A stretch of 64,000 bases of DNA from a virus. The translations under genes were made by a program, and so were the position numbers. The notes under the pieces were generated by a model. The model was given only the letters and a program-made list of their open reading frames with translations. It was not told the DNA's origin and did not search any database. The DNA lies in the IMG/VR virus record IMGVR_UViG_3300042345_000884, positions 13,923 through 77,922 of that record, one strand, 5' to 3'. Positions 4,036 through 64,000 of this stretch are shown in pieces (position 1 is the stretch's first letter; each line of letters opens with the position of its first letter).

Positions 4036-4305
4036 ATGGATACAAGAGAATTTCGTCCGTTGATTTTAGAAACCGTAGATAGTTATCTAGAGTTTATCAA
4101 CTGTTACAAGATTGTTACAATTACTCATTGTCCCGTAGGGGATAATTATGTAGTGGATGCGACCTCAAAAGTGGGAATTACAATATCCAATAAAGCAGCT
4201 AAGGTCTTAATGCAAGCAATAGTTACCGATTTATTTTTTTCCAGTGACGATATTGACGAAAGAAAAGTTTTGCGGAGCGATGGGACATTCGATAGATTTT
4301 TATAA
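4036..4305 (+). CDS. Hypothetical protein
   Basis: 89-aa ORF with GAGG RBS and an upstream TTGACA-N17-TAATAT promoter. Confidence 0.6.
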   Translation: MDTREFRPLILETVDSYLEFINCYKIVTITHCPVGDNYVVDATSKVGITISNKAAKVLMQAIVTDLFFSSDDIDERKVLRSDGTFDRFL

Positions 4306-12995: not shown

Positions 12996-13186
12996 TTGTA
13001 TTAATATAAATTTATCTAATCTCAGTGTAACAAAACTGTCTTGACAATTCAAGCAAGAAGCCATATAGTTTAGTTATGGGTGCGAAACGTTTAGGCAACG
13101 CTAAAACTCAGACAGAAAAAGATATTAAATTGATAATCGAAAAGGCGGACAAACAAAGCCAAATAACTATCTAAAAGAGGTGCGTC

Positions 13187-13735
13187 ATGGGAAAATCTCA
13201 ACTTTGTAAAAACTCATTATCTCTTGGGGTAAAAATGGGAAACACATTAAGTTATGTAGTTTTTTGTAACTACTGTAGTTTTGAGATTCAAGAATGCCTA
13301 GACATTAAAAGCATTGAACTGCTAAAAAATATTATTCAGGAAACTATCAAGGCTAATCCGATAAAAAAGTACACACAAGCAAACTGGAAAAATTGGATAA
13401 AAACCAGTCGATTAATTATTCCAGGTTTTAATGGCGTATGGAAGAAATTAAAAAAGATTAGGCAAAACTATTTTAGAAAAACAATGCAAGAAATGTGGCA
13501 AAAAATGAACGACTTTGATTACAGTCAATACGAATATGATATATTTGAAAAACTATGGGACGAGAAAGCATGGGATGAATTTCAGGAATCATGGGAAAAA
13601 GATTGCAGAGAAAGACAAAGAAAACTGGCTAGAGAACTAGCTTACACTAATGATTTGTGGGAAATTTTAGTAAAGACAAAGCAAAAATTACCTAGTTTTG
13701 ATAATTTTGGGAAGGAGTTAGGCAATGGAAGATAG
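13187..13735 (+). CDS. Hypothetical protein
   Basis: 182-aa ORF with GAGG RBS. Confidence 0.6.
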   Translation: MGKSQLCKNSLSLGVKMGNTLSYVVFCNYCSFEIQECLDIKSIELLKNIIQETIKANPIKKYTQANWKNWIKTSRLIIPGFNGVWKKLKKIRQNYFRKTMQEMWQKMNDFDYSQYEYDIFEKLWDEKAWDEFQESWEKDCRERQRKLARELAYTNDLWEILVKTKQKLPSFDNFGKELGNGR

Positions 13736-14015
13736 AATTAAAGCTAGACTTGCTTTTGTAGAAAAAACCAAAAAAGACTTAACAGAATTAAGAAGTCGAA
13801 TTTTGGGGGAACGAATGTCAAAAGAACAATATTATCAAGATAAAGTTAATGATGCTATTAGCATTAAAAACACTGTTTCTTTTTTTAACAAACATTCTGA
13901 TAGAATAAAAGAAGAATTTGGCAACCCTGATTTTGAAGCTTTATTCGATAAAAGATTAGTCATGAAAATCACTTGTTTTGACAATTTTTGGGAAGAGTTA
14001 GATAATGGAAGATAA
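13725..14015 (+). CDS. Hypothetical protein
   Basis: Overlapping ORF; C-terminus resembles that of the previous gene. Confidence 0.6.
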   Translation: MEDRIKARLAFVEKTKKDLTELRSRILGERMSKEQYYQDKVNDAISIKNTVSFFNKHSDRIKEEFGNPDFEALFDKRLVMKITCFDNFWEELDNGR

Positions 14016-37521: not shown

Positions 37522-37965
37522 TAGTTTGTAATTAGACTGTAGATAAGATGATCAACAATGAAAAGCATTGATATATATAGTTTCTAGACTTTGTTTATAT
37601 TGTTACTCTATTTCCCCGTGTCAGGATTTTTTATCCTTCCTTATTGTCCAGTTCGTTTATCTCTCCCTATCTTTTCTCTCCCCTGTATAGGGCATCGACA
37701 AGATAAACAAACCTCGAAACCTATACCCTGCAAGACTTTCGATTGTAGATAAGGTTATTAACAATCGAATTACAATCTAACAGCCTTACTGCTGACCTTG
37801 CTTGTTTCTTTTGCAGTCTTTTTATTGTCCAGTCTGGTTTATTCTTTTGTTTTTCTTTTTTTCCTCTATAGTCCATCGACATTATCTACAAACCTTAAAA
37901 CCTATACTCTATAAGGCTTTTGATTGTCGATCACCCTATCTACAATCTATCTACAATAATAACGA
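37522..37965. repeat. Three arms of the repeat family (one forward, two reverse)
   Basis: Arms at about 37536-37625, 37690-37780 and 37870-37960, separated by pyrimidine tracts. Confidence 0.8.
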
Positions 37966-40208: not shown

Positions 40209-41516
40209 ATGACTTCCATCAAATTTTACGAAAGATCGACAATTATTAAACGTATTGAGGACAATCTCAATGAAATTAACCGAAACTATTTCGAGGGAAA
40301 ACACGGAATATTATCAGTCACTAATAGCGGCGATTACGTTACGGTTAAAAATCGAGGTGTTTACTTAGCAGACTATGACACTCAAAAGCTTTTTGACGCA
40401 TTAGAAAACTTTGAAGATGATTACGAGCTTGCGCTTTCCTGCTATGATCTTTGGGATTATCTTGATAATTGTGAATACACACTTCCAGAAGATCAAAAGC
40501 TTCTTGTAAAACTTGAAGATTTACTTGATGAAATTGATTGTACATACTTTAGTCATTGCCGTTCAGAATTATTAATTGAGCAACAAAATGACGAAATAGT
40601 AAATATCCGTAAGAATGGCGAATGTTTATCATTCTTTATTCAACCGCTAGTTAGCAGCTTAGATAATATCGATACTGGTTTTTTTGATGATCTATGGGAT
40701 TATCTTGAGTATAAGTTTCTGTTTCACGCAGTAAAAACTGACAATGAATTAAAAACCAATGATGAGTTATCTTTTCCTGAAAAACGGCAAGTTGCGCTTG
40801 TCGATATGTTGTTAAGTGAACCTGTACCTATAACTGAATCTTCTGGTCTGGATGATTGGACTACCAGTTTAATACCCCACTCACAAACTATACATACCGA
40901 AGCCTCAACGCTAAAGGAATTAGTTGAGGAACTAGAACAAAAAAATGAAATTCTGGAGAAAAAAAATCAAGAATTAGAACAGAGCAAAGAATACAACGAA
41001 GCATGGATTGACAACTTAAAACAAAAAGTTCACGATTTAGAATGTGCGGTTTATCTGATGCAACAGGAAACAAATCAGATAGCAGTCTTAAACGAATCTG
41101 TTACTCAGTTACACATTCGTATCTACAAATTGGAACAGGAAAATAAGTAACTAAAAAATCAATCAGAGCCTCAACCAGAAACTAAACTAGAACCTAAACC
41201 GACAACTAAAAAGCGACCCAAATTTAAACTCCCCGAAAACTTTGCTGACTATCAGCAAGAGTGCGACGACTTAATTAATGCCTTGTCCTGTTTCTATAAC
41301 ATCAAAAAAGGTAAATGGAATGGGATTCTCCAATTTATCCTCACTCCTACCGCTTCTCAAAAAGAGAATTATCCTGACAAGTGGAGAGCAGGACTATATT
41401 TACAGCCAGGACAGTGGATAGTTGACAAAGTAAGTATGTCCGACCCTGATGACTGGCAAGAGTGGTTTATGGACATTGACGATTTTGCTGACGCTAACGG
41501 TATAGAGATTAGTTAG
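40209..41516 (+). pseudogene. Coiled-coil protein split by an in-frame TAA at 41148-41150
   Basis: Frame stays open from 41151 into the 41283-41516 ORF. Confidence 0.7.
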
Positions 41517-46330: not shown

Positions 46331-46776
46331 ATGACGCAATTAATGCGCGGTTAGAAGCAATCGCTAATCCCATCAATTGGGAAGAAATCTATTACAAATG
46401 GTGTGCGTGGGGACTGTCTGTCGAGGAGTGGGAAGAGTGGCCAGACTGGTTAATCCTAAAAAAATATTCAGGGATTCAAAAAGTCAAATGTGAAGAGATC
46501 AATTCACTATCGGACACAGTTAGCCAGATTGCCGCCATGGTTAACATTTACTTAATGGCTCAATCAAAAGAAAAATCACAGTCTCAACCTCCAAAACCCA
46601 GTGATTTTCTTCCTTTCCGGTTTAAAGAAAATAAAAAATATTTTCTTGATCAAGAAACCGCTCAAATTCTGTTAGAAGCTATGAAAACTGGACAAGTGCC
46701 AGTCTTCGCCACTCAGATAATAGTTGATTGCGGACTATACGACGAAATAATTCAATCAATAGGGGAGAAAAGCTAA
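46318..46776 (+). CDS. -1 frameshift extension of the tail chaperone (gpT-like)
   Basis: -1 frame is open from AAAAAAC (46318-46324) through the 46537-46776 ORF. Confidence 0.75.
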   Translation, partial: KKRIDDAINARLEAIANPINWEEIYYKWCAWGLSVEEWEEWPDWLILKKYSGIQKVKCEEINSLSDTVSQIAAMVNIYLMAQSKEKSQSQPPKPSDFLPFRFKENKKYFLDQETAQILLEAMKTGQVPVFATQIIVDCGLYDEIIQSIGEKS

Positions 46777-49700
46777 TGTCTTTATCACTTGGTACTTTAG
46801 AAATCGGTCTAGGGCTAAATACAGCCCAATATGATAGTGGTATCAAATCGGCTAAAGACCAGCTTTCTTCCTTAGAGGATTATGCCCAAAAAATCACTAG
46901 AGACATGGAATGGTCTCTTAAACAAAGTATTCCTAAGCTAACAATTGTTCCGTCAGTAGATCACCGTCCATTACACGGTTTAAATAAACATTTATCAGAA
47001 AAAGGAAAACACATTGATCAAGTTAGTAAAAAAGTTATCAAGATTAAAGTTGATGACAGTGAACTACAAGAAATAGCAAACAAAACAGTTATAGTTCAGG
47101 CGAAAGTTCAGTCTAAAAGTTCTAGCCAAAAATATTCTAATGAGATTAAACAAACAGTAGAAGTATCTATCAAAAATGCAAATCTTGAATTATTAACAGA
47201 AATTAAAGCGGTTACAAAAGAAATCAGAGAAGTTGTTAAAGCTGTTTCTAGATTAAAGCCTACAGCTATTGGAACTATAAGCAATTCTTTAATACAAGGA
47301 ATTGGATTTAATTTGACTAAAAGTTTTAGTCAAGGATTTGAACAAAGTTTTACTAGAAAAACTGGATTTAACTTTGAATCTGCTGGGCAAAAAACTGGAG
47401 ATATAACTGCTAGTTCTGTACAGTTTGTTCAACCAGTATTAAATAAACTTGTTGATACTTTACAAATAAAAATAGATAAAATAACAGGCAGAGATAAACC
47501 GATTGGAGAACGAATATTAACTGCATCAGAAACTTTCCAAAAAATACAAACCAAGATAGGAGTTTCTAATAATAATCCTTATGCTCAAAAATCTATAGAT
47601 AGTTCGATAGCAAGTTTTCAAAATATGCTCAGTGTTTTAGGAAGTGGCGAATTTTCAGAATTTCCAGAAGCATCTCAAAAGGCAATAACTTCACTAACAG
47701 AGTTATTAAACCTTATATCTTCCGAAAATAACTTAGGTGAACTTACTAAAGATTTAGCAGATTTATTAAAAATAACAATTGCTTTTAGTGGAAAAGATTT
47801 TTTACAAATTATTAAACAATCTCACTCTCTTTTGAAAACTCAAAAAGCTTTAGAGGGAAGTAGCGCAGAATTTATCGGAGCTTTAAAGCAAGCAGTATCA
47901 GAGCAAAAAATTATTGAACAAGGATTTAGATTGATTGCAAGAGAAAATCATAAATCATTTTTTGTTAACGATGAAGGTAAATATATTGGAACCGACAATG
48001 TAGGTGGTCGAGTGATCGGATTTACAGCCACACCAAAACAATCAATACCTGGTGTTGGGCAAGATATTTATGAAATTGCTTTTTCTCTAGATTCTCGGTT
48101 TTCTAGTCTAGGAGATGCAGCGCAATTAACAAAAAAAGAAGTAATTCAACTAAAAAACTCTGTGTCTGAGTTTTTTAATAAGTTTGTAAGCAATACTAAT
48201 GAAGCTATATTAACTGCATCGCCAGAAAATGTAGATCAAAAAGGAAAAAGACGGGGATCAATTTATCAACGATTTGGGTTTGTTCCTGAAGGAGAAGACA
48301 ATCGTTTAGTGGCGCAAATTTCTTCTAGGAAAATTGTTGAGCCAAACTTAAAGTTTAATTTAAAACAGAATGAACAGGTTGCTCAAATAAGTAAACAAAT
48401 TGAACAAAGATTGACAACTACTTTAGGTACGTTTGATAATCTATTTCAGCATAGTATTTCACAATCTATTCAATACGCTAAATCTATAATTATTGGAAGC
48501 GAGTTAATTCAGCAAGATTTAGAGCAACTTCAAAAAGAAGCCCAAAACGCTGAATATGATGATTCACCCGCAATACAAGCTCAAAATAGAATAAATCAAA
48601 ATTTAAAAAATTTACAAGCAAGAGTAAATCAAAGCAAAAGACTGCAAAACGATCCTATTTTACGAGATTTTTCTAAAATAGACATAACAAATATAAATAC
48701 TCTTGTACCAAAAGAACAATTAGCAAAAATTGCATTAAAAATTACTAAAATTACAGAAAATGTGCCTAAAGAAATTGTTGAAAAATTACTTGAGCGTATT
48801 GCACAATTTCAGCCAAAAGAAATAATTGACCCTACACTCTTAGGATCAATTATTTCTTCATTAACAAAAGATATACAAACTCAATTAACAGGAGTAACAC
48901 CTCAATTAAAAATGTTTGGTAGTGGTGTTAATTCAAATTATCTAAATTTATTACCAGAAAAAAAACGAGCATCATTTCTTAAAAAACAAACAGAATACGA
49001 GCAAGCATTAATTAAATACGAGCAGACCGACAATCCAGAAGCCAAAATACCGACTCCTCCACAGTTAAGCAAGATTGATAAACAGACAATTGCTAAAAAC
49101 CTTAGAATTGAAGACATTCAACGTGAAGTCTCTTATGTTATTCAAAATGCTAACACTTTAAGAAAAGCGTCTCAAGATGCTATTGATCGAGTTAATAATT
49201 TATTAGCTAAAGTGCCAAAAAACGAAAGATTTGGACATCCATTGGCATCATTAAAAGGAAACCTTACTCAACTTAAAGAATCTGCCGAAAATGTTAATCC
49301 TATTTATGATTTAAAAAAATTAGGTGTAAACAAAGAAATTCTTGACGCTATTAACGTTAAATCTCAAGTAATACCAGAAATGGCTGATGCTGGCTCTAGT
49401 ATTGTCTCTGGATTAATGCAAGGATTAAATAGTAAACTAGCAGAACTTGAGACTGTTTCAATAGACATTGCCTCTATTCCACTAGAAATAACTAAACAAA
49501 TCAATAAAATACAGTCGCCTTCTAAAGAATTTGAAAAAATAGGAAAAAATATAGTTGAAGGTGAAATTAAAGGGATTAAGTCGAAAGAAAAAGATTTACA
49601 AGCGACGATGGCTATCATTGCTAAAAATATGATAGAGAATCTTTATTTGGCGACTAAAAATCCTGTAAACATCGATCCGTTTTTTCCTCATCCACAATCA

Positions 49701-52700
49701 TCAGGTGGTGGAATACCTCCTATTCCCCCTATTAACCGACCTGTTGCTTCATCTGATCCCGAACCCGAACCAAATAAACAGGCAAAATCGGCAAGCAAGA
49801 TAATTCAGAATATAGACAATCCTACTCAATTACAAAAAATAGGTAAGGTATTTGAAGTAATTAAAAATCAGTTAAATAACTTGCCTGAACCTATTAAACG
49901 AGTCTTGCTCGGAGCAAGAACACTATTATCAGCTTTTGCTGGTTTTCAAATTCTTCAGCAAGCCAGTATGTTTTTTCGACAATTTACCACTGATTCTTTT
50001 GAAGCAGCATTAAACATGGAGCGGCTTGAAACAGCCTTAGATTTTTCAACTGAAAATGCTGAATCTTCTCTTGCTAAATTAAAGATACAAGCTGACCGAT
50101 TAGGGCTATCATTTTTATCTTCTGCCAAAAATTATCAGCAGTTTAGTGCTTCTACAATAAATACGCCATTAGAGTTTCAAAAAGATAAAATTTTTGAAGG
50201 GATAACGTTAGGATTGGCTACTAGAGGTGCTAGTTCTCAACAGCAAGATAGAGCTTTACTAGCTATTACTCAGATAGCTAGTAAAGGTCGTGTTTCAATG
50301 GAAGAACTTAACTCTCAGTTAGGTGAAGCAATGCCAGGCGCGTTACAGATTGCTGCTCGTTCTATGGGATTGACTTCTCAAGAATTTATTAAATTAGTTG
50401 AATCAGGATCTATTTTAGCAGAAGATTTGCTACCTAAACTAGCTACACAGATTAACTTAGAAAGTGCTGGTGGACTTAGTGTTATTGATGACACAGCTTT
50501 TGCTCAAGTTGCCAGAGTTCAAAATCAGATAGAATTGCTTCGCATTTCATTAGGCGAATCTTTATTAAACGCTTCTAAATTAGGATTACCATTAATAACA
50601 AAAGGACTAGAAATATTAACGAAACATGGTCAGTCGTTAGCTACTGTATTAACATCTATTAGTATTGTTACTGTTGGCAGTTTTGTGATGGTTCTAAAAA
50701 ATCTCGGACTTATAGACTTAACACTAAAAGCATTAGGAGTTACAGCTAAAACTACTGGTGGGGCAATATCTCAGATTGGAGTAGGACTACTTAAAGGATT
50801 AGGATGGACTGCATTAATCTTTGGTGTAATGGAAGCTTTTAAAGGGCTTTATCAATACATCAACGCAGGCTCCGAAGAGTCTAAACGATCCCTTAAATCA
50901 ACTCAAGAATCGTTACAAGAATTGAGACGATTACTAGAAAAACCTTTACCTACTTCTACTGTTATAACTGATAGTGCAACCGCAATTCAGCAATTTAAAA
51001 ACAACAGAGAAAAAGATAAAAGTTTAGAGTTTACTGCGGGAGGACTAAGTGATACGACACAAATCTTAAGATTATCAACTGATACATTTAGTGATACAAG
51101 AATTACCGAATTTACGGGTAAACTTGACACATTGCGGCAAAAAGCAAAAGACCTCAAGGTAGATGAAATTATAGCCAGTGGAGATGCTGACGTTAAAAAA
51201 GCTACATCTGTTCGTCAAGAAATTGCAAAAGTAAATCAAGAAATACAAGCTTTGACGGAAAAATACTTCCCTCAAATTGGGCTTATTGTTAACGAGATAG
51301 CATCTACAGAAGAAAGAATTACAGCAATCAAAAAAGTCTTAGATGATCCAGAGTCTTCTAAGTTCCAAAAAGATAATGCTAGTATTCAGTTAGAAGTCGC
51401 TGAAGCTCAACTTAGAAAATTAAAAGAATCACAAGAAAAATACAACGAAGCAGTCAAAGAAAATTTAGTTAACTACCAACGATTAACAGAACAGATAAAT
51501 AAAGTAGCAAGAGCTTTATCTAATATTGAATTTATCTCTAACGGACGGACTATTTTATCTGAAACAAATATTAAACGACAAGTTTTATCTGGTAATCTTA
51601 AGCGATTTGAAATAGATTTGGTTATTAGAGAACAGAGCCTATCTATTGTCAAGGATCAGTTTAATTCACTTAATGAATTACTAGCAACCAAAGAAAAAGA
51701 ATTACAAAACACATTAACGGATCAGATTAATCAGCGAATAACTGAGTTAATGCCTGAATTAAACGGACTAGATTTTAGAACGGCACTACAGCAAGGAATC
51801 GTGTCACCAGAAGCTATAGGTGATCGGTTACAACAGTTGGGAGACCAAGCTCCTTTTGAATTAAAACAGGTATTAGAAGCAGCTAAACAGCAAGCATCTA
51901 TTAGACGACAAACTTTAACTATTGATAAATCAATTGTCGATACAGAACTAGAAATTGCTAACGCTAGAAGAGAGCGTGCAAGAAATGCTAGACAAGCATC
52001 AATAGTGGGAGCTAATGTTAACGAGAGAATTGCTACTCTGAGACAATTACCTTTAGGTGGTCCAGTTGCTTCTTATCGGGATGCCCTATCAGAAGTTCGC
52101 AACCAAGAGAGACTATTAGAAGAGGCTTATCATCGATTAGAAAGTGCATCGGACGACCCTAATGTAATTCAGCAAGAGGTTGATAATACCCGATTAGCCC
52201 TAGAACAAGCCCGTGCTAATTTGTTACAGCAACAAACCTCACTACAAGACTATTACCGCAACCTTGACCGTCAGATAATAGATTTTAATCGTCAGATTGA
52301 AGATTACAGAAGACAGATTGAAGACGCTCAACTGTCAGCATTTAAAGAGAATCGTTCCCTATCTGAAAGTTACAGTGATTTAGTCAGGGAACTTGACAAG
52401 AACCTCTTAAATGCTCAAAATCAGCTACTGGACGCAACCGATAGAATCAGGGTACAGCAAGTCAAAAACCGTTTATTAATACCCGGTACAAGCGATGCTG
52501 GTAAAGAGTTAGGTGACATTTTCCTAGAATTTGTACAGGGTCAGGCTGACATTGCTAGTCGCGGTCGTACCTTCCAATCCCGAACCGAGGAGATAGAAAC
52601 TTCCTATATCTCTACCTTAAGAAATATCCGTAACTTACAGGAGCAACAGCAAGATGCTGAAAGAAACCGACTAAGAACGATTGAAGATATTAAACGAACT

Positions 52701-55700
52701 CAAGAAAACCTTAATCGCACTTTAGCTGATTTAATCCGACAAACCAATAAAGAATTAGGCTTTATTCCCCAATCAATCAAGGATATTGTCACAAATCTCA
52801 ATACACTCCCAGAACCGATTAAATTAATTAATTCTGAGTTAGTAGCTATTCCCCCAAATATCAAGACTTCTGGGGAAGACTTAGTAAAAAGTATAGAGGA
52901 AACTGCTGAGGCAATCAGAAAAGCTAAGGAAGGTTTAATATTACCGGCTCCCAGTAATTTTATCCCTGCTCCTGTGTGGAATGGGGGGAGTTTTTTACCT
53001 CCGCCACCGTCACAGTTGCCGTCAAATCCTAATAGATTAACACGCCGAGGTCAAGAATTATCTCAGCATTTAGACAATCCTCGCGTCAAAGCTTTTCTTG
53101 ATACTATTGCTTATGCAGAAGGTACTGCCAATATGCCAAATAAGGGATATAACACCCTTTTTGGTCATGGACAATTTAGTTCTTTAGCAACTCACCCAAA
53201 TATTCACGTTCCTTTTGGTAACACTACTTCCACTGCAGCTGGAAGATACCAAGCACTGAATTTTGTATGGGATGAAGAAAAAGTAAAATTAGGGCTAAAA
53301 GACTTCTCTCCTATCTCTCAGGACTTACTAGCATTAAGCCGTATTTCAATGCGAGGTGGGTTAGATGAGCTTCTTGAAGGAGATATTCGTGGAGTAATTA
53401 ACGCAGTCAGCAAAGAATGGGCATCTTTCCCAGGGGCTAATTACCCAGGACAAGGTATGAAACGGATGGAAGACTTGTTAAATTTTTATCAACAGTCTTT
53501 ACGAAAATATCAACCAAATGCCACCCGTACTACAGCCGAACTAGAAGCACTGCAATACAATGACAGTCCTGCTAACACTGGAGCAGTAAACCGCGTTCGA
53601 CAAATCAGGAGAAATCAAGGTGGTCAGGGTGCTAATGTCCCCTCTCAAAGTCCAGTTGTTCCTAGTGCATCATTACAATTACCACAAAATCTACAAAAAG
53701 GATCAAATATCCTAGTAAGAAAGTCTGGACGGAGAACACCAGAAGGATTAGAGATACTCCAATTTGATTTAATCAAAAACGGAAAAGTAGTAGATACAGT
53801 AATCGGAGGAGTAACAGGAAGACCATCAACGCAGTCTGCAATTGGAACTAATAGAACCAATATTCGTGGCAGTGAAACTCCACTGCCTGACGGTAATTGG
53901 TCTATTGACGCTAACCACGCATCTCGTTATCTTCGACAATTTAATTCTGGACAGCTTACAAGTTATAAACCTAGCCAAATTCCACTAGGAACTGTTGGCC
54001 CTGCGTGGATAGGAGCCGAACCAAAATTCTCTACTGGAAGATCGCAAATCGGATTCCATTTAGACGATTTACAGCTTGGCAGTGCTGGATGCCTTGTTTT
54101 CACCGATCCCAATCAAATCGCAAAAATCGCTAACTGGGTAGTTCAATCAGGAGCTAATTCAATGTTTGTCGATCTTGACGGCAAACAAACAAGTCGCGGC
54201 GGTCAAGGCGGTCAAGGTGGCCCAGAATTTAGTAGTTCTCCATCTATAACTCAAGAGTTACCATCTCCCCCGTCTATAGCCCAATTACCGACTTTACCCA
54301 ATCAAAACCAAGATAATTTCTGGGATGCTGATTTACCGCCGGTTCCTAAAGATAATCTGATTAACTTCCAGAATCCTAATTTACCTCCCGTTCCTAACCT
54401 CCCTACGGCTAATCTTGGCGATGCGGCTGGTCAAATTCGCGCAGCTGAAACAGCCGAACAAAACAGTCAAGAGTTTTTAAGACGATTAGAAGAGCAACAA
54501 AATCTAAATAATGCTCTTGATAGATTAATAAAATTTAGACAGCAACAAGAGGAAGATACTCGTACATTAGAACGTACCTTAAGAGATGCTTCTGAAAATG
54601 TCGCTGACTTGACTATTAACTCTAAAGGGTATCTGACAGTACAAGAGGAAATTAATAAAAGTGCTACAGAAGTCTCTCGACAATATCGCTCTCAAATTGA
54701 ATCACTAGAAGACCAGCGACGGACCTTGCTTTTAAATGCCGACGCTATGAAAAAACGAAGCGAGGTAATGAAAGATGAGTTGCGAAAAGAATTAGAAATA
54801 AATCCTAATACTCCCATATCAGTTGTGGAAGAAACGACAAAAGCTATCGAGATTTTAGCTAAAAACGCTGAATTAGCCAAAGAACGGGTAGGAATTCTCG
54901 ATCAAGCGATTGAACAATTAGGCAAAAATCAGGGAGTAGCTACCTTAGAAGCATCATTTAGAAGAACCAGAGATACAGTCAGAAGTATTCGCGACCGGTT
55001 AAATGATTTAACTATTCAGAGAATGAAATTAGAAAATCAATCCCGACCGACTCTATTTGATGATTCTGCTATCCTCACTGAACGTATTAGCCTACAAAAA
55101 GACAAAGAAGAACTAGAGGATTTCTTAGAGCCTTATAAAGACTTACCACAATACGCTGAATATGTAGCTAATATCCGATCAGAATGGGAAAAACTTGCAG
55201 AATTAAGATTAGAACGAGTAGCATTAGACGCTTCTCCGAATCGTGGCGCAGCTGAAAGCTTCTTTTCTGACATTAGAGAAGGAAAGGGAATAGAATCGGC
55301 TTTTGGTAGTCTTGGATTAAATGTCGTGACTAAATTTGTTGAGGGTATTACCAAGCCTGCTATTGATGCTCTAACATTAGCTATTGACGGATTTACCAAG
55401 CCAATAACTCAAGCTTTTGAGTCAGTATTTAATGCAATTATCGGGCCAGTAGGTAACTTCTTTACTAATGCCCTCAGTAGCATATTTAAGCCAGTGAGTA
55501 ACATCTTCTCTTCTATCTTTGGAGGCAGTAGCGGTGGTGGATTATTTAATGGGTTACTTAGTGGAATAACAGGGATTTTTAGCGGAGGACTTGGAGGACT
55601 CGGTTCAATTGGTTCGCTTGGTAGTATAGGAGCCTCTAGCTTTGCTTCTGCTCCAGCTTCTGCATTTTCTCTGGGTACAGGATTCAGCTTATTTAGTGAT

Positions 55701-56087
55701 GGTGGTAAAGTCGGCAAACCTAATGCTCCGATAGAGAAAAATGTCATTTCAGCTTTCCAGCGTGAACGAGCTATGAGTGGCGGTCGAAAACCTCGATTAA
55801 TCGTAGCCAATGAAGATGAGTTAGTATTAAATCCTAAAGAGACAGAAGCTTATCTAGAATATAGAAACAACGCTCCCATTAAAAATTACGCTAACGGGGG
55901 ATTTGTCGGAGGTAAACCTAACTATTCCACGACTTCAAATAACAATAACTCTAATCAGTCTTTAGTAATTAACAACACCAATAACGTTACTGTAGAATCA
56001 AGAAATGACATAGGTTATAGTTTAACTCAATTGAAAGAACGGGAAAATGCACAAAATGAACGAACCAAAAAACGATTCTTTGGGTAA
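46776..56087 (+). CDS. Tape measure protein with embedded muramidase and YkuD/Tlde1-like domains
   Basis: QIASKGRVSMEELNSQLGEAMPGA; AFLDTIAYAEG..TAAGRYQ..WASFPG; IGFH...GSAGC. Confidence 0.9.
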   Translation: MSLSLGTLEIGLGLNTAQYDSGIKSAKDQLSSLEDYAQKITRDMEWSLKQSIPKLTIVPSVDHRPLHGLNKHLSEKGKHIDQVSKKVIKIKVDDSELQEIANKTVIVQAKVQSKSSSQKYSNEIKQTVEVSIKNANLELLTEIKAVTKEIREVVKAVSRLKPTAIGTISNSLIQGIGFNLTKSFSQGFEQSFTRKTGFNFESAGQKTGDITASSVQFVQPVLNKLVDTLQIKIDKITGRDKPIGERILTASETFQKIQTKIGVSNNNPYAQKSIDSSIASFQNMLSVLGSGEFSEFPEASQKAITSLTELLNLISSENNLGELTKDLADLLKITIAFSGKDFLQIIKQSHSLLKTQKALEGSSAEFIGALKQAVSEQKIIEQGFRLIARENHKSFFVNDEGKYIGTDNVGGRVIGFTATPKQSIPGVGQDIYEIAFSLDSRFSSLGDAAQLTKKEVIQLKNSVSEFFNKFVSNTNEAILTASPENVDQKGKRRGSIYQRFGFVPEGEDNRLVAQISSRKIVEPNLKFNLKQNEQVAQISKQIEQRLTTTLGTFDNLFQHSISQSIQYAKSIIIGSELIQQDLEQLQKEAQNAEYDDSPAIQAQNRINQNLKNLQARVNQSKRLQNDPILRDFSKIDITNINTLVPKEQLAKIALKITKITENVPKEIVEKLLERIAQFQPKEIIDPTLLGSIISSLTKDIQTQLTGVTPQLKMFGSGVNSNYLNLLPEKKRASFLKKQTEYEQALIKYEQTDNPEAKIPTPPQLSKIDKQTIAKNLRIEDIQREVSYVIQNANTLRKASQDAIDRVNNLLAKVPKNERFGHPLASLKGNLTQLKESAENVNPIYDLKKLGVNKEILDAINVKSQVIPEMADAGSSIVSGLMQGLNSKLAELETVSIDIASIPLEITKQINKIQSPSKEFEKIGKNIVEGEIKGIKSKEKDLQATMAIIAKNMIENLYLATKNPVNIDPFFPHPQSSGGGIPPIPPINRPVASSDPEPEPNKQAKSASKIIQNIDNPTQLQKIGKVFEVIKNQLNNLPEPIKRVLLGARTLLSAFAGFQILQQASMFFRQFTTDSFEAALNMERLETALDFSTENAESSLAKLKIQADRLGLSFLSSAKNYQQFSASTINTPLEFQKDKIFEGITLGLATRGASSQQQDRALLAITQIASKGRVSMEELNSQLGEAMPGALQIAARSMGLTSQEFIKLVESGSILAEDLLPKLATQINLESAGGLSVIDDTAFAQVARVQNQIELLRISLGESLLNASKLGLPLITKGLEILTKHGQSLATVLTSISIVTVGSFVMVLKNLGLIDLTLKALGVTAKTTGGAISQIGVGLLKGLGWTALIFGVMEAFKGLYQYINAGSEESKRSLKSTQESLQELRRLLEKPLPTSTVITDSATAIQQFKNNREKDKSLEFTAGGLSDTTQILRLSTDTFSDTRITEFTGKLDTLRQKAKDLKVDEIIASGDADVKKATSVRQEIAKVNQEIQALTEKYFPQIGLIVNEIASTEERITAIKKVLDDPESSKFQKDNASIQLEVAEAQLRKLKESQEKYNEAVKENLVNYQRLTEQINKVARALSNIEFISNGRTILSETNIKRQVLSGNLKRFEIDLVIREQSLSIVKDQFNSLNELLATKEKELQNTLTDQINQRITELMPELNGLDFRTALQQGIVSPEAIGDRLQQLGDQAPFELKQVLEAAKQQASIRRQTLTIDKSIVDTELEIANARRERARNARQASIVGANVNERIATLRQLPLGGPVASYRDALSEVRNQERLLEEAYHRLESASDDPNVIQQEVDNTRLALEQARANLLQQQTSLQDYYRNLDRQIIDFNRQIEDYRRQIEDAQLSAFKENRSLSESYSDLVRELDKNLLNAQNQLLDATDRIRVQQVKNRLLIPGTSDAGKELGDIFLEFVQGQADIASRGRTFQSRTEEIETSYISTLRNIRNLQEQQQDAERNRLRTIEDIKRTQENLNRTLADLIRQTNKELGFIPQSIKDIVTNLNTLPEPIKLINSELVAIPPNIKTSGEDLVKSIEETAEAIRKAKEGLILPAPSNFIPAPVWNGGSFLPPPPSQLPSNPNRLTRRGQELSQHLDNPRVKAFLDTIAYAEGTANMPNKGYNTLFGHGQFSSLATHPNIHVPFGNTTSTAAGRYQALNFVWDEEKVKLGLKDFSPISQDLLALSRISMRGGLDELLEGDIRGVINAVSKEWASFPGANYPGQGMKRMEDLLNFYQQSLRKYQPNATRTTAELEALQYNDSPANTGAVNRVRQIRRNQGGQGANVPSQSPVVPSASLQLPQNLQKGSNILVRKSGRRTPEGLEILQFDLIKNGKVVDTVIGGVTGRPSTQSAIGTNRTNIRGSETPLPDGNWSIDANHASRYLRQFNSGQLTSYKPSQIPLGTVGPAWIGAEPKFSTGRSQIGFHLDDLQLGSAGCLVFTDPNQIAKIANWVVQSGANSMFVDLDGKQTSRGGQGGQGGPEFSSSPSITQELPSPPSIAQLPTLPNQNQDNFWDADLPPVPKDNLINFQNPNLPPVPNLPTANLGDAAGQIRAAETAEQNSQEFLRRLEEQQNLNNALDRLIKFRQQQEEDTRTLERTLRDASENVADLTINSKGYLTVQEEINKSATEVSRQYRSQIESLEDQRRTLLLNADAMKKRSEVMKDELRKELEINPNTPISVVEETTKAIEILAKNAELAKERVGILDQAIEQLGKNQGVATLEASFRRTRDTVRSIRDRLNDLTIQRMKLENQSRPTLFDDSAILTERISLQKDKEELEDFLEPYKDLPQYAEYVANIRSEWEKLAELRLERVALDASPNRGAAESFFSDIREGKGIESAFGSLGLNVVTKFVEGITKPAIDALTLAIDGFTKPITQAFESVFNAIIGPVGNFFTNALSSIFKPVSNIFSSIFGGSSGGGLFNGLLSGITGIFSGGLGGLGSIGSLGSIGASSFASAPASAFSLGTGFSLFSDGGKVGKPNAPIEKNVISAFQRERAMSGGRKPRLIVANEDELVLNPKETEAYLEYRNNAPIKNYANGGFVGGKPNYSTTSNNNNSNQSLVINNTNNVTVESRNDIGYSLTQLKERENAQNERTKKRFFG

Positions 56088-58271: not shown

Positions 58272-58754
58272 ATGCCTAATTCTCCAAAAGTACAACAAAA
58301 TTTTAATGCTCCTGTTTATGGAGTAACTGGTTCTCCAAAAGTACAACAAAATTTTAATGCTCCTGTTTATGGAGTAACTGGTTCTCCAGAAGTGCAACAA
58401 AATTTTAATGCTCCTGTTTATGGAGTAACTGGAAAAATTGCCAAAGATCAAACAGAATTAAAATTTGATTATATTGTTAGATTTATTGCATGGGTTTTTC
58501 CTGATAAAAGCGATTCAGTTTATAAAAAATTGCTTATAACCGATATTTCTATTGGGATTACCTCTGAATTAGCCGTAAAGTCTGGTAAATTTGACGAGAC
58601 TAACTACTGTTGTGTTTACATCGCACCAGAAATTTTTGAAAAATTTATTATCACTAAAACAGGATCAAATTATACGGCTCAGACCGTTGACGTGCCGAGA
58701 CTATTAGAATATTGGGAGACTATAGGGTTTTCTCTTTATATTGATAAAAGTTAG
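58272..58754 (+). CDS. Hypothetical protein with three 17-aa repeats
   Basis: SPKVQQNFNAPVYGVTG x3 (51-bp units at 58281, 58332, 58383). Confidence 0.7.
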   Translation: MPNSPKVQQNFNAPVYGVTGSPKVQQNFNAPVYGVTGSPEVQQNFNAPVYGVTGKIAKDQTELKFDYIVRFIAWVFPDKSDSVYKKLLITDISIGITSELAVKSGKFDETNYCCVYIAPEIFEKFIITKTGSNYTAQTVDVPRLLEYWETIGFSLYIDKS

Positions 58755-58777: not shown

Positions 58778-59044
58778 GTGATTACTGCAAAACAATTAAA
58801 AGAGTTTTTGGCAACCGTTGAAGACGATGCACTTATTTTTATAGGGAAAAGCGGAGGGATGTCTTATGGTTGCCAAGATTTTATGGTTAAGAAGGAATTG
58901 TTTATAGAGAAAGAAGACCAGTTTCTTGATTCCCTAATTTGGGAGCATGGCTTTGACGATGAAGAAATTGAAAAGCTTGAAAAGCAAGCTATCGAGCGAC
59001 AAGCTATCTATTTGCAATACTACCCGGACTGGGGGGATGATTAA
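58778..59044 (+). CDS. Hypothetical protein
   Basis: 88-aa ORF, GTG start. Confidence 0.55.
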   Translation: MITAKQLKEFLATVEDDALIFIGKSGGMSYGCQDFMVKKELFIEKEDQFLDSLIWEHGFDDEEIEKLEKQAIERQAIYLQYYPDWGDD

Positions 59045-59071
59045 ATGTCAAATAAAAAACCTTTAGACTTC

Positions 59072-59108
59072 TTACTTGACATTTCTATAAAGCTTATGGT
59101 AGATTTAA
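59072..59108 (+). promoter_or_regulatory. Promoter of the Cas12-like gene
   Basis: TTGACA-N18-TAGATT with TG extension; near-identical to the 58194 copy. Confidence 0.75.
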
Positions 59109-59132
59109 ATAAGAATAAAGGAAGGTCGATCC

Positions 59133-60941
59133 ATGAAAGCCAAAAGTAAAGTCAACCGTAAAGTAGATGAGTGCCAAATTCAAGAAACACTTAGTTCTAA
59201 AGATAACTATCTAAGGTTTAGTATTGTCAAAAAGACTCCTAAGACAAAGGAAGAAAAACCTCCTATGGAAGTCTTAGAATTTAAAATACATCCTACCAAA
59301 GAACAAATCACAGAAATTAACCGTTCTTTTGTGGCGTGTAAGTTACTATGGAATCTTTCAATCGCACTCAAAGAAGAGTCAAAACAAAGATATTATCGTA
59401 AAACTTATAAATTTGATGAGTTTAGCCCTGAGATATGGGAGTTAAGTTATTCTGGACATTACGACGAAAAAGAGTTTAAAACCCTTAAAGATAAAGAGAA
59501 AGAACTTTTAATAAAAAACCCTTGCTGTAAAATTGCCTATTTCAAAAAGACAAGTAACGGAAAAGAATATACTCCCTTAGATGCTATTCCTATCCGCCGT
59601 TTTATGAATGTCGATGACATTGATAAGGATGCTGTTAACTATCTTAATAGACAAAAACTTGCTTTTTACTTTCGAGAAGATACAGCAAAATTTATCGGTG
59701 AAATTGAAACAGAGTTTAAAAAAGGCTTTTTTAGAAGTGTGGTTAAACCTGCTTATGATGCCGCTAAAAAAGGTATCCGTGGGATTCCCAGATTCAAAGG
59801 AAGCCGGGATAAAGTGGAGACTCTTGTTAATGGTCAACCTGAAACTATAAAAATTGAATCTAATGGAGTTATCGTTTCCTCAAAGATAGGATTACTGAAA
59901 GTGCGGGGGATTGACCGACTACAAGGAAAATCTCCCCGAATGGCTAAAATTACTCGTAAAGCGACGGGATATTACTTACAGTTAACCGTTGAAACTGACA
60001 ACGCAACCTATAAAGAATCCGATAAGTGTGTTGGTTTGGATATGGGTGCTGTGGCAATATTTACCGATGATTTAGGGAGACAATCAGAAGCTAAACGCTA
60101 CGCAAAAATTCAGAAAAAGCGACTTAACCGATTACAGCGTCAAGCTTCCAGACAAAAAGATGGCTCTAATAATCAGCGTAAAACCTACGCTAAACTTGCC
60201 CGTGTTCACGAGAAAATAGCCCGTCAAAGAAAAGGGAGAAATGCCCAATTAGCCCATAAAGTAACCAGTGAATATCAAACAGTTATTTTAGAAGATTTAA
60301 AACTAAAAAACATGACAGCCGCCGCAAAACCTAAAGAAAAGGAAGACGGCAATGGCTATAAACAAAATGGCAAAAAAAGAAAGTCTGGATTAAATAAAGT
60401 ATTGCTTGATAATGCTATCGGTCAACTTCGCACATTTATTGAAAATAAAGCTAACGAACGTGGCAGAAAAGTGATTCGTGTTAATCCTAAATATACCTCG
60501 CAAACTTGCTTAAATTGTGGTAATATTGATAAAGCTAACCGTGTTAGTCAGTCAAAGCTTAAATGCACTAGCTGTGGTTTTGAAGCCCACGCCGATCAGA
60601 ATGCCGCCGCAAATATTCTGATCCGTGGACTGCAAGATGAGTTTTTAAGAGCGATTGGCTCTTTAATTAAGTTTCCCGTCTCTTTGATTGGAAAATACCC
60701 TGGTTTAGCAGGGAAATTCACGCCTGATCTTGATTTGCATCAAGAGTTTATCGGGGACGCGCCGATAGAGAATGCCGAACACTCGATTAGTAAGCAGATG
60801 AAGCAGGAAGGGAATCGCATACCCACTCAGTCCGAGAATGACTCGCAATCCCTTATTTTTCAAACCGCCCCACCTCAGCCGTGCGAGGATAGCCACGGCA
60901 TAAATAACCCGAAAGCCTTACCCAATAAGGCATCTAAGTGA
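59133..60941 (+). CDS. Compact type V CRISPR effector (TnpB-derived, Cas12f/C2c8 V-U2-like)
   Basis: LEFKIHPT N-motif (alternative start 59265), RuvC-I GLDMG, RuvC-II LEDL, Zn finger CLNC/CTSC, RuvC-III ADQNAA; array 170 bp downstream; no tnpA. Confidence 0.88.
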   Translation: MKAKSKVNRKVDECQIQETLSSKDNYLRFSIVKKTPKTKEEKPPMEVLEFKIHPTKEQITEINRSFVACKLLWNLSIALKEESKQRYYRKTYKFDEFSPEIWELSYSGHYDEKEFKTLKDKEKELLIKNPCCKIAYFKKTSNGKEYTPLDAIPIRRFMNVDDIDKDAVNYLNRQKLAFYFREDTAKFIGEIETEFKKGFFRSVVKPAYDAAKKGIRGIPRFKGSRDKVETLVNGQPETIKIESNGVIVSSKIGLLKVRGIDRLQGKSPRMAKITRKATGYYLQLTVETDNATYKESDKCVGLDMGAVAIFTDDLGRQSEAKRYAKIQKKRLNRLQRQASRQKDGSNNQRKTYAKLARVHEKIARQRKGRNAQLAHKVTSEYQTVILEDLKLKNMTAAAKPKEKEDGNGYKQNGKKRKSGLNKVLLDNAIGQLRTFIENKANERGRKVIRVNPKYTSQTCLNCGNIDKANRVSQSKLKCTSCGFEAHADQNAAANILIRGLQDEFLRAIGSLIKFPVSLIGKYPGLAGKFTPDLDLHQEFIGDAPIENAEHSISKQMKQEGNRIPTQSENDSQSLIFQTAPPQPCEDSHGINNPKALPNKASK

Positions 60942-61029
60942 AGTTCCAAAAAATCACGGGGCGCAATCTCCGAAAACCCTGACCAGTTTACGATCTGGGA
61001 TTCACCAGCCTGATTTTTTGAACCAAGCA

Positions 61030-61041
61030 GAACCTTGAAAA
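61030..61041 (+). promoter_or_regulatory. boxA-like antitermination motif in the CRISPR leader
   Basis: GAACCTTGAAAA, matching the cyanobacterial rrn spacer boxA as I recall it. Confidence 0.6.
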
Positions 61042-61110
61042 CTGAATTTTAACGAATGGGGCGCAATCCTTACTCAAAACCCTTTTATATCAAGGGTTTT
61101 GGGAAGATAA

Positions 61111-61363
61111 GAAACAATTAGGCTTAAGCTTTATTAGGGATTGAAACAACCTTACACCCTGACACGGCTTTAATGCTTTACCGAAACAATTAGGCTTAAG
61201 CTTTATTAGGGATTGAAACAACAATGACCCTCGAAATGTCTCAACCCCAACTCAAAACAATTAGGCTTAAGCTTTATTAGGGATTGAAACCAAGTTAGTA
61301 TCTGTTTTTAATTGCTTAGGAATAAAGAAACAATTAGGCTTAAGCTTTATTGAGGATTGAAAC
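61111..61363 (+). CRISPR. CRISPR mini-array: four 37-bp repeats, three spacers (35, 34, 36 bp)
   Basis: GAAACAATTAGGCTTAAGCTTTATTAGGGATTGAAAC at 61111, 61183, 61254 (first base A) and 61327 (last, degenerate). Confidence 0.97.
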
Positions 61364-61375
61364 TGACACTAAACA

Positions 61376-61663
61376 ATGAGTCAAACACAACTAGATAAAA
61401 AGATCGATCAATTTCTAAGAAAGAAACTAACCAAAGCAAAACTAAAAGAAATGGGAATAAAACCACGCCCTTTAATTTTGACAATACGCAATTTTGTCAA
61501 GAGGTATTTACTTATCATTTTAGATAGTATTTTTATTAATGTTCCTTGTGGATGGGATAACTTTTTTGAAAGTTTTTATTGCTGGCAGAAGCTAATACTT
61601 AAAAGCAATAAATCTCTGTTAGTAATTTATTTCTGGGAAACTATTAATAACTATAAAGAATAA
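61376..61663 (+). CDS. Hypothetical protein (paralog of 62839-63162)
   Basis: VPCGWDNFFESFYCWQKL. Confidence 0.6.
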   Translation: MSQTQLDKKIDQFLRKKLTKAKLKEMGIKPRPLILTIRNFVKRYLLIILDSIFINVPCGWDNFFESFYCWQKLILKSNKSLLVIYFWETINNYKE

Positions 61664-63768: not shown

Positions 63769-63850
63769 GGGTTGGTGACCGAGTAGCCGAAGGTGACAGA
63801 CTGTAAATCTGTAGAGTAATTCCACGCTGGTGCGAATCCAGCCTAACCCA
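63769..63850 (+). tRNA. tRNA-Tyr (GTA)
   Basis: GGGTTGG/CTAACCC-A acceptor, ACAGA-CTGTAAA-TCTGT, long variable arm, GCTGG-TGCGAAT-CCAGC; own TTGACA-N17-TAAGAT promoter at 63728. Confidence 0.92.
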
Positions 63851-64000
63851 CTAAAATAAAACATATTGACAAATTTTGAAGACTTGGAGAAGTTTTTAAT
63901 ATGACCAGACAAACATCTAATTTTGTTAACAATGATCGCACAATCCTTACCTACCTTGAAATTTTAGCAAATAAAAGTATTGAACCTGAAAGGTATCGTG

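Follow-up and report, generated by a model that had tools for sequence, protein, structure and literature searches.

A type V-U2 CRISPR cassette of Microcystis phages, with spacers probably supplied by the type I-D adaptation machinery of the host

The window, a stretch of 64,000 nucleotides taken from a 77.9-kb IMG/VR virus record (IMGVR_UViG_3300042345_000884), contains at positions 61111-61363 a CRISPR array that follows a gene for C2c8, an effector of type V-U2. We think it probable that this is the array of a phage-borne V-U2 cassette, that its spacers are supplied by the type I-D machinery of the Microcystis host and that C2c8 uses the resulting CRISPR RNAs (crRNAs) against mobile DNA. 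The evidence comes from the anatomy of the locus, its membership in a family of cassettes, its homology with host and plasmid loci, the turnover of spacers among sister phages, the absence of adaptation genes and two informative protospacers. From it we infer which machinery would insert the spacers, what may cut the precursor crRNA (pre-crRNA), that C2c8 would cleave DNA and at what kind of target the three spacers of the window would be aimed. The record shares patches of about 90% nucleotide identity with Microcystis phages of the Ma-LMM01/MaMV group, and a lineage of Microcystis siphophages appears to carry the cassette stably at a single locus.

The cassette, its effector and its array

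The cassette (about 59054-61363) comprises, in this order, a promoter, c2c8, a conserved leader/scaffold region and the array, and homology with the cassettes of sister phages begins at about 59054, where the alignment block starts. A strong promoter-like site (59076-59105, plus strand; TTGACA, 18 nt, TAGATT with TG; 10 of 12 positions matching) precedes c2c8 (59133-60941, plus strand), which encodes a Cas12/TnpB-like protein of 602 amino acids and whose true start is perhaps the ATG at 59265 (residue M45). The array lies on the same strand, 170 nt downstream of the open reading frame (ORF). The effector scored 458.5 bits with the NCBIfam model V_cas_c2c8 (NF038192), for which the cut-off is 350, and matched Cas12u2 of PADLOC with an E value of 2.8e-163. 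NCBIfam and PADLOC thus bear out the class 2 effector of the first-pass annotation and identify the gene next to the array as that for C2c8. The Pfam matches were OrfB_IS605 and Cas12f1-like TNB. The translation contains the RuvC motifs GLDMG, ILEDLK and HADQN and a CxxC...CxxC zinc ribbon, and alignment to a solved Cas12f structure likewise showed the D/E/D motifs of RuvC.

Searches covering the whole record found no gene for Cas1, Cas2, Cas4 or Cas6, nor for TnpA (Y1_Tnp). We considered the possibility that c2c8 is the tnpB gene of an IS200/IS605 transposon. This was rejected on account of the missing Y1_Tnp and of the presence of a multi-spacer array with turnover instead of a single guide; the effector also scored only 138 bits with the IS200_TnpB model, below the cut-off of 425. 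Mic1 gp49, an early TnpB-like gene whose disruption decreases burst size (PMC11237433), is not the same thing either, as it is an ordinary TnpB of 414 amino acids, 26% identical to the window effector and without a downstream V-U2-type array.

Direct counting confirmed the geometry given in the first-pass annotation (37-nt repeats, 34-36 nt spacers): the array consists of four direct 37-nt repeats, with spacers of 35, 34 and 36 nt between them, all on the plus strand. Repeat 1 (61111-61147) is followed by spacer 1 (61148-61182), repeat 2 (61183-61219), spacer 2 (61220-61253), repeat 3 (61254-61290), in which A replaces G at the first base, spacer 3 (61291-61326) and repeat 4 (61327-61363), a degenerate trailer repeat with TTGAGG for TTAGGG. 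No target was detected for any of the three spacers. The 22-nt core of the repeat occurs four times in the window with up to 3 mismatches and was not found in 100 dinucleotide shuffles.

The Microcystis I-D repeat that the first-pass annotation had quoted proved exact. It is GTTCCAATTAATCTTAAACCCTATTAGGGATTGAAAC, repeat type DR1 of M. aeruginosa, which occurs exclusively downstream of the I-D cas cluster (PMC4428289) and which we also found in long arrays on three Microcystis genome contigs. The window repeat is identical to DR1 at 29 of 37 positions (8 mismatches), including all of the last 16, as that annotation had stated; its refuting condition, the absence of a close host repeat, is thereby contradicted. 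Yet the two are not near-identical, as they differ consistently at positions 2-4, 11-12 and 20-21. Both share the 8-nt 5' handle ATTGAAAC and, in the hairpin, the 3' arm. The 5' arm changes from CCCU in DR1 to CUUU in the window repeat, where G-U pairs would preserve the stem, and the predicted minimum free energy of the hairpin is -3.5 kcal/mol for the window repeat versus -5.3 kcal/mol for DR1. Furthermore, an I-D array lies downstream of an I-D cas cluster and leader, whereas the window locus is found in a phage without I-D genes.

A closer match was the consensus repeat of the V-U2 family, GAAGCAATTAA(G/C)CTTAAGCCTTATTAGGG(A/G)TTGAAAC, to which the window repeat is identical at 34 of 37 positions (3 mismatches, versus 8 to DR1). 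Near-identical cassettes are present in 15 viral contigs, one M. aeruginosa plasmid and three Microcystis chromosomal contigs. In plasmid p1 of M. aeruginosa NIES-2481, a PGAP-annotated c2c8 is followed by a 23-repeat array of the V-U2 family, and in the chromosomal copies repeats of this family form the first one or two repeats after the gene. Since the repeat is common to the whole family in phages, plasmid and host cassettes, its likeness to DR1 indicates descent of the family from an I-D type and not a private imitation; "mimics", the verb used in the first-pass annotation, was the wrong word. G241 and G187, two other cyanobacteria with more distant C2c8 loci, each have next to c2c8 an array whose repeat is that of their own cas1-linked array, with one difference over 26 compared positions, and these repeats differ from DR1 and from one another. 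V-U2 repeats thus track the resident cas1-linked repeat in three lineages, as expected if they depend on resident class 1 machinery. The Microcystis family would have descended from the host I-D repeat and would still be compatible with it, having the same length and the same last 16-17 nt.

Spacer turnover and the type I-D signature

Synteny with the window extends over both flanks in fifteen IMG/VR contigs (80-90% nucleotide identity), which carry the cassette at one locus; one of them (L056) is identical to the window, and c2c8 is conserved in all 15. Their arrays contain 4-21 repeats and 70 distinct spacers. In three of these contigs (L046, L050 and L051), the last 3-6 spacers are common while those proximal to c2c8 are different. 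The terminal repeats of the sister arrays are degenerate and the older, shared spacers hold point mutations. A shared trailer, a differing leader end and degenerate terminal repeats are the signature of polarized acquisition at the leader end. Comparison of spacers across related phages, one of the checks proposed in the first-pass annotation, thus contradicted the idea that the spacers are invariant.

The spacers also resemble those of the host. Their median length of 35 nt (mostly 34-36) and their GC content of 0.42 do not differ between phage V-U2, plasmid V-U2 and host DR1 arrays. Phage protospacers were found for two V-U2 spacers (L052_2 and L041_4), both with GTC as 5' flank, and the protospacers of host DR1 spacers that match these phages are flanked by GTT or GTC, which is the I-D protospacer-adjacent motif (PAM). 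One such host spacer (spacer 9 of L006) matches window positions 37714-37746 over 33 of 37 nt (4 mismatches) and the sister phage G316 over 36 of 37 nt, with a GTT flank, indicating that the host I-D system records this phage lineage.

The 170-nt leader, or intergenic region (60942-61110, plus strand), is specific to the cassette and as conserved as coding sequence. It is about 88-90% identical across host, plasmid and sister-phage cassettes and, among 17 Microcystis genomes, is restricted to the three that have c2c8. This distribution, together with the poor alignment to I-D leaders beyond one 12-mer, led us to reject the idea that it is an ordinary I-D leader. The 12-mer, GAACCTTGAAAA (61030-61041, plus strand), is identical in the Microcystis I-D leader, where it occupies positions -43 to -32, versus -81 to -70 in the V-U2 leader. 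A conserved I-D leader motif has been described at about -44/-50 (PMC6607411; bioRxiv 10.1101/2021.02.06.429022), and the 12-mer may correspond to it.

From the turnover of spacers in phages without adaptation genes, the I-D-like spacer length and PAM, the co-variation of the repeat and the leader 12-mer, we consider it well supported that the spacers are supplied in trans by the I-D Cas4-Cas1-Cas2 proteins of the host. These would insert spacers at the c2c8-proximal end while the carrier of the cassette, either the phage itself or another one, is in an I-D-positive cell. The first-pass annotation is partly supported. It holds for the host-like repeat, the class 2 effector and its feeding by class 1 adaptation, the last of which gains strong comparative support from turnover, spacer length, GTC PAM and repeat tracking; its wording in terms of mimicry has to be dropped, and the cutting by host Cas6 that it proposed is no more than suggested.

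The relation with the I-D system is also apparent in host chromosomes. In the standard I-D locus (G004, L113), cas6, cas4, cas1 and cas2 are followed by the leader and the DR1 array. In three host chromosomes, the cassette exactly replaces cas4-cas1(-cas2), between cas6 and the long DR1 array. Two of them, G002 (L006:4985-8000) and G003 (L007:51-4300), have I-D cas6, c2c8, the V-U2 leader and two V-U2 repeats ahead of the DR1 array. In the third, G001 (L005:2470-5090), cas6, c2c8 and the leader are followed by one V-U2 repeat fused to the last 170 nt of cas1, after which the locus continues with cas2, the I-D leader and the DR1 array. The Cas6 encoded upstream of host c2c8 is 94-96% identical to the standard I-D Cas6. 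Cas1 was not detected in the draft genomes G001, G002 and G003, and a search for Csc2 in G002 and G003 gave no match; as these are drafts, this does not establish the absence of I-D interference genes. The one finding that bears on Cas6, namely that cas6 is kept directly upstream of host c2c8, is suggestive of processing of the array RNA by host Cas6, yet not decisive.

In G001, the 3' end of I-D cas1 accounts for what looked, behind the single V-U2 repeat, like a spacer and a partial repeat. The likeness of this cas1 segment to the 5' half of the repeat exceeded that of shuffled sequences for one repeat variant only and was treated as chance, and an omega-RNA-like reading of the locus, with the flanking DNA as guide, had no PAM support. 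The same locus has, at the stop codon of c2c8 (L005, about 4140-4150), a 9-nt insertion that yields GGATTGAAAC, the 3' end of the repeat; this variant was also seen in an RNA contig (X17, with a loose end at 60920).

The protospacers found for V-U2 spacers of relatives indicate what the cassette might be used for. A spacer of the sister phage G317 (L052 spacer 2, about L052:7058-7093) matches over 35 of 36 nt the 3' part of a second c2c8 paralogue (L047:9375-9410, in the ORF L047:7896-9581), with a GTC flank. This paralogue, of 561 amino acids and 32% identical, is present in other sister phages and absent from G317, and in some of the targets the flank is mutated to GCT. In addition, the first, leader-proximal V-U2 spacer of both G002 and G003 (L006:7890-7923 and the first spacer of L007) corresponds, in reverse complement, to the 3' end of I-D cas1 (protospacer L113:1501-1534; 5' flank ATC), and nine other Microcystis genomes contain the target sequence. 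Of the three V-U2 protospacers found, a small number, two therefore lie in CRISPR-cas genes, which agrees with the cassette serving in conflicts among mobile elements. The whole arrays of two sister contigs (L044 and L050) gave repeat matches only when compared with the phage collection.

Candidate scaffold RNA and relatives without c2c8

Assembled contigs of four metatranscriptome runs (X15-X18) from two studies were placed on the locus. Deep contigs over 60676-61091 define a candidate scaffold (tracr- or omega-like) RNA, which reaches from the 3'-terminal part of c2c8 into the intergenic region. The summed contig depth, a rough measure, was 850-2,090 in X16 and about 13,000-14,000 in X18 over 60676-60883, dropped to about 590 and 1,530, respectively, over 60884-60987, and remained intermediate up to 61091, compared with 20-130 for the body of the gene. 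In X15 and X17, which belong to the other study, the excess over 60676-61091 was smaller. These data point to an abundant RNA overlapping the 3' end of the ORF and the leader. A pattern of this kind is reminiscent of the omega RNAs of TnpB and of the tracrRNAs of type V-K systems, in which the tracrRNA is located between the effector gene and the array. The RNA contigs miss most of the window's array, because spacers vary between strains, and so have no bearing on its transcription.

The scaffold stretch folds better than shuffled sequences (z -2.78) and its predicted fold is conserved. It contains CAATCC motifs complementary to GGGATTG of the repeat. One candidate anti-repeat, CAATCCCTTAT (60846-60856, plus strand), located inside the deeply covered stretch, could pair 10 of its 11 bases with AUUAGGGAUUG of the repeat, a role that we read from the sequence. 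Another, CAATCCTTA (61064-61072, plus strand), would pair with UAGGGAUUG of the repeat. In the consensus fold computed with RNAalifold, CAAUCCUUA (61064-61072) pairs with UAGGGAUUG of repeat 1 (columns 340-348 with 412-420), and the repeat variants GGGG and UAAGG retain this pairing (5 one-sided changes, 0 broken). A search of Rfam with the leader/scaffold region gave no known family, just a weak match to CRISPR-DR9 and a chance match to a long non-coding RNA.

C2c8 would thus use its crRNAs probably together with an abundant scaffold RNA made from the 3' end of its own ORF and the leader, whose anti-repeats would pair with UAGGGAUUG. The candidates for cutting the pre-crRNA are host Cas6, RNase III plus the tracrRNA, and C2c8 itself. 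If Cas6 cut 8 nt ahead of the spacer, most of the duplex with the anti-repeat would be lost, so that the Cas6 and tracr routes would be partly exclusive. The probable purpose of the whole would be the cutting of competing mobile DNA.

Related phages without c2c8 have a single V-U2-type repeat in the syntenic position, flanked by homologues of the window ORFs 58778-59044 and 61376-61663. This is the case for MaMV-DH01 (L040:3303-3339) and for at least six IMG/VR contigs (L073, L080, L081, L083, L086 and L091), and the position corresponds to that of repeat 4 of the window. A second type of solitary repeat (type B; L079, L085 and L088) has its own promoter-like site. Solitary repeat units are defined by the lack of an effector and of functional spacers, whereas the window has an effector and three spacers. 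In the cultured Fukuivirus MaMV-CH02 (PP681322.1, about 40340-40540; L140:1440-1640), a consensus promoter (TTGACA, 17 nt, TATAAT) is followed by two perfect DR1 repeats flanking a 39-nt spacer, which is an inverted copy of the promoter region; this stretch may be a decoy or a regulatory mini-array. A related stretch of Ma-LMM01 is annotated as a "56 bp repeat unit".

Elsewhere in the window, three tandem 51-nt units (98% identical; 58280-58432) lie just upstream of the cassette, within the ORF 58272-58754. An ORF of 3119 amino acids occupies 46728-56087, and a tRNA-Tyr (GTA) gene is found at 63769-63851, in a region about 92% identical to that of the Ma-LMM01/MaMV phages, the rest of the genome being different.

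Alternative readings and known systems

Several points weigh against the view that C2c8 uses host-fed spacers against mobile DNA. The window's three spacers gave nothing beyond repeat matches in phage and plasmid collections, only the twin contig L056/L090 among exact 24-mers of IMG/VR, and no match with up to 3 mismatches over 30 nt in 17 Microcystis genomes. The V-U2 protospacers found total just three, and the one in cas1 is flanked by ATC, not GTY. The leader 12-mer lies 38 nt farther from the first repeat than in the I-D leader. The RNA contigs lack ends and strand, their depth is rough and some may derive from host copies of the cassette. Support for the scaffold from covariation is thin (3 double-change pairs), because the compared sequences are closely related. 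DNA cleavage has been shown for no V-U2 effector (review PMC11641405), type V-U still ranks as "candidate" in PMC12669027, and our literature search found no experimental characterization of V-U2. Finally, the turnover could stem from another replicon via recombination, gain of a spacer on phage DNA itself being unobserved.

This last point leads to the reading in which the differences between sister arrays result from recombination with host or plasmid V-U2 arrays and not from adaptation on phage DNA. The repeats do offer long shared homology, and cassettes 88-90% identical in nucleotide sequence exist in chromosomes and on a plasmid. Yet none of the 70 phage spacers was found among the 22 plasmid and 107 host spacers sampled, a shared trailer with a unique leader end is the pattern of stepwise acquisition, and the spacers would still have been installed somewhere by a borrowed adaptation module; we give this reading little credence. 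That the array is the inert relic of a horizontally acquired host fragment is highly improbable. Its shortness (3 spacers), its degenerate last repeat and the lack of identifiable targets would agree with decay, but the ORF is unbroken, sister phages that have diverged by about 10-15% in nucleotide sequence retain the cassette at one and the same locus, the non-coding leader is conserved like coding sequence and the cassette is present in RNA libraries. A reading that accepts I-D-fed spacers is that the cassette is a CRISPR-parasitic selfish element, which directs its guides against rival CRISPR modules and replaces them. It would ride phages, plasmids and chromosomes, perhaps have its crRNAs processed by I-D Cas6, and aim at host I-D cas1 and at the second c2c8 cassette of sister phages; cleavage followed by recombination would replace cas4-cas1-cas2 ahead of the DR1 array, and in the phage the element would serve as a weapon and gene drive during co-infection. 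We regard this as possible, if rather unlikely.

Two further readings assign the array RNA to the host I-D proteins. In one, transcripts of the repeats act as decoys that soak up host I-D Cas6 or Cascade and blunt immunity, c2c8 being secondary. Solitary repeat units are reportedly able to act as RNA anti-CRISPRs (Camara-Wilpert and colleagues, 2023). In agreement with such a role, the repeat agrees with DR1 throughout its last 16-17 nt, which comprise the handle ATTGAAAC and the hairpin's 3' arm, C-to-T substitutions in the 5' arm preserve G-U pairing on the transcribed strand only, relatives without c2c8 keep the solitary repeat, MaMV-CH02 expresses two perfect DR1 repeats from its consensus promoter, and host DR1 spacers target this phage lineage. 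A decoy, however, could do without spacer turnover, without arrays that reach 21 repeats and without a conserved nuclease of 600 amino acids with an intact RuvC site, and the 5' half of the repeat has diverged alike in all V-U2 arrays, which looks like privatization rather than mimicry. We therefore hold it unlikely as the main function. In the other, Cas6-cut phage crRNAs would be loaded onto the host I-D (or type III) effector to act against competitors, leaving C2c8 with another role. The same features of the repeat speak for it, and the spacers, having the length and PAM of I-D, would be valid guides for I-D interference. On the other side, the DR1 array in G002 and G003 is flanked by cas6 and c2c8, with Csc2 and Cas1 undetected in these drafts, which points to C2c8 as the user of the guides, and all 15 sister contigs have kept the effector gene; such a hijack appears distinctly unlikely. 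Both are possible as side functions.

The locus family is a natural data set: its phage, plasmid and chromosomal members show about 90% identity, and it offers dozens of ordered arrays together with matching I-D loci. It allows a direct test of whether adaptation, and possibly Cas6, is borrowed across classes. The findings also suggest that a host-fed CRISPR system is turned by phages of a major toxic bloom-former on one another and on CRISPR modules, and they bear on the ecology of bloom viruses and on the emergence of Cas12 from TnpB beside class 1 arrays. C2c8, being compact (about 560-600 amino acids) and having a defined candidate scaffold, may also interest tool developers. A literature search, not exhaustive, yielded no report of a Microcystis phage lineage with V-U2 cassettes or of their polarized turnover, of a cassette replacing I-D adaptation genes, or of anti-cas1 or anti-c2c8 spacers or an abundant scaffold RNA.

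Mini-arrays of viruses that rely on the Cas proteins of the host and are directed at related viruses have reportedly been described (Medvedeva and colleagues, 2019; Faure and colleagues, 2019). Unlike these, the window array has its own effector, and a match in a related virus was found only for a sister phage's spacer. CasPhi processes its own crRNA; its repeats are not known to be host-like, and neither CasPhi nor Cas12r is known to be linked to a class 1 locus of a host. Cas12j/CasPhi of huge phages and Cas12r of Thermus Lalka phages (bioRxiv 10.64898/2026.04.20.719267) likewise combine a minimal phage-borne Cas12 with an array and no adaptation genes, but they belong to Cas12 families other than C2c8.

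The V-K systems (Cas12k; Hsieh and Peters, bioRxiv 10.1101/2021.02.06.429022) are similar to the window cassette in having a cyanobacterial TnpB-derived effector without adaptation genes, 37-bp repeats with ends in common with I-D repeats, spacers around 35 bp long, GTN as PAM and a leader motif resembling that of I-D. Feeding of V-K arrays by I-D Cas1-Cas2-Cas4 was already proposed in that work, which also mentions in passing a V-U2 array sharing spacer(s) with V-K arrays. Cas12k, however, is nuclease-dead and bound to a Tn7-like transposon, whereas C2c8 of the window has an intact RuvC domain and is carried by a phage. Furthermore, V-K repeats are argued to lack a Cas6 stem-loop (bioRxiv 10.1101/2021.02.06.429022), whereas the stem of the window repeat would be kept via G-U pairs and I-D cas6 adjoins c2c8 in host loci.

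Among cyanophages, N-1 (Chenard et al. 2016, PMC4916379) also carries a short array, of five 37-nt repeats that belong to the I-D-type DR5 family and end in ...GGGATTGAAAC. This array is transcribed during infection and has no database targets (PMC4916379). N-1 is without any cas gene, whereas the array of the window comes with its own effector and scaffold. A phage-borne V-U2 precedent is that of vB_AphaS-CL131 (CL131; Sulcius et al. 2019, PMC6293099), which is the best phage match to the window effector (P0001; 37% identity) and which, like the window, has a C2c8-type effector and an array without adaptation or other cas genes. Its 36-nt repeats have little likeness to the host I-D/III-B repeats, no tracrRNA was found and no dynamics were shown (PMC6293099). 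The lineage of the window, in contrast, combines an I-D-like repeat (29 of 37 positions) with cassettes in host I-D loci and on a plasmid and with the turnover of spacers between sister phages.

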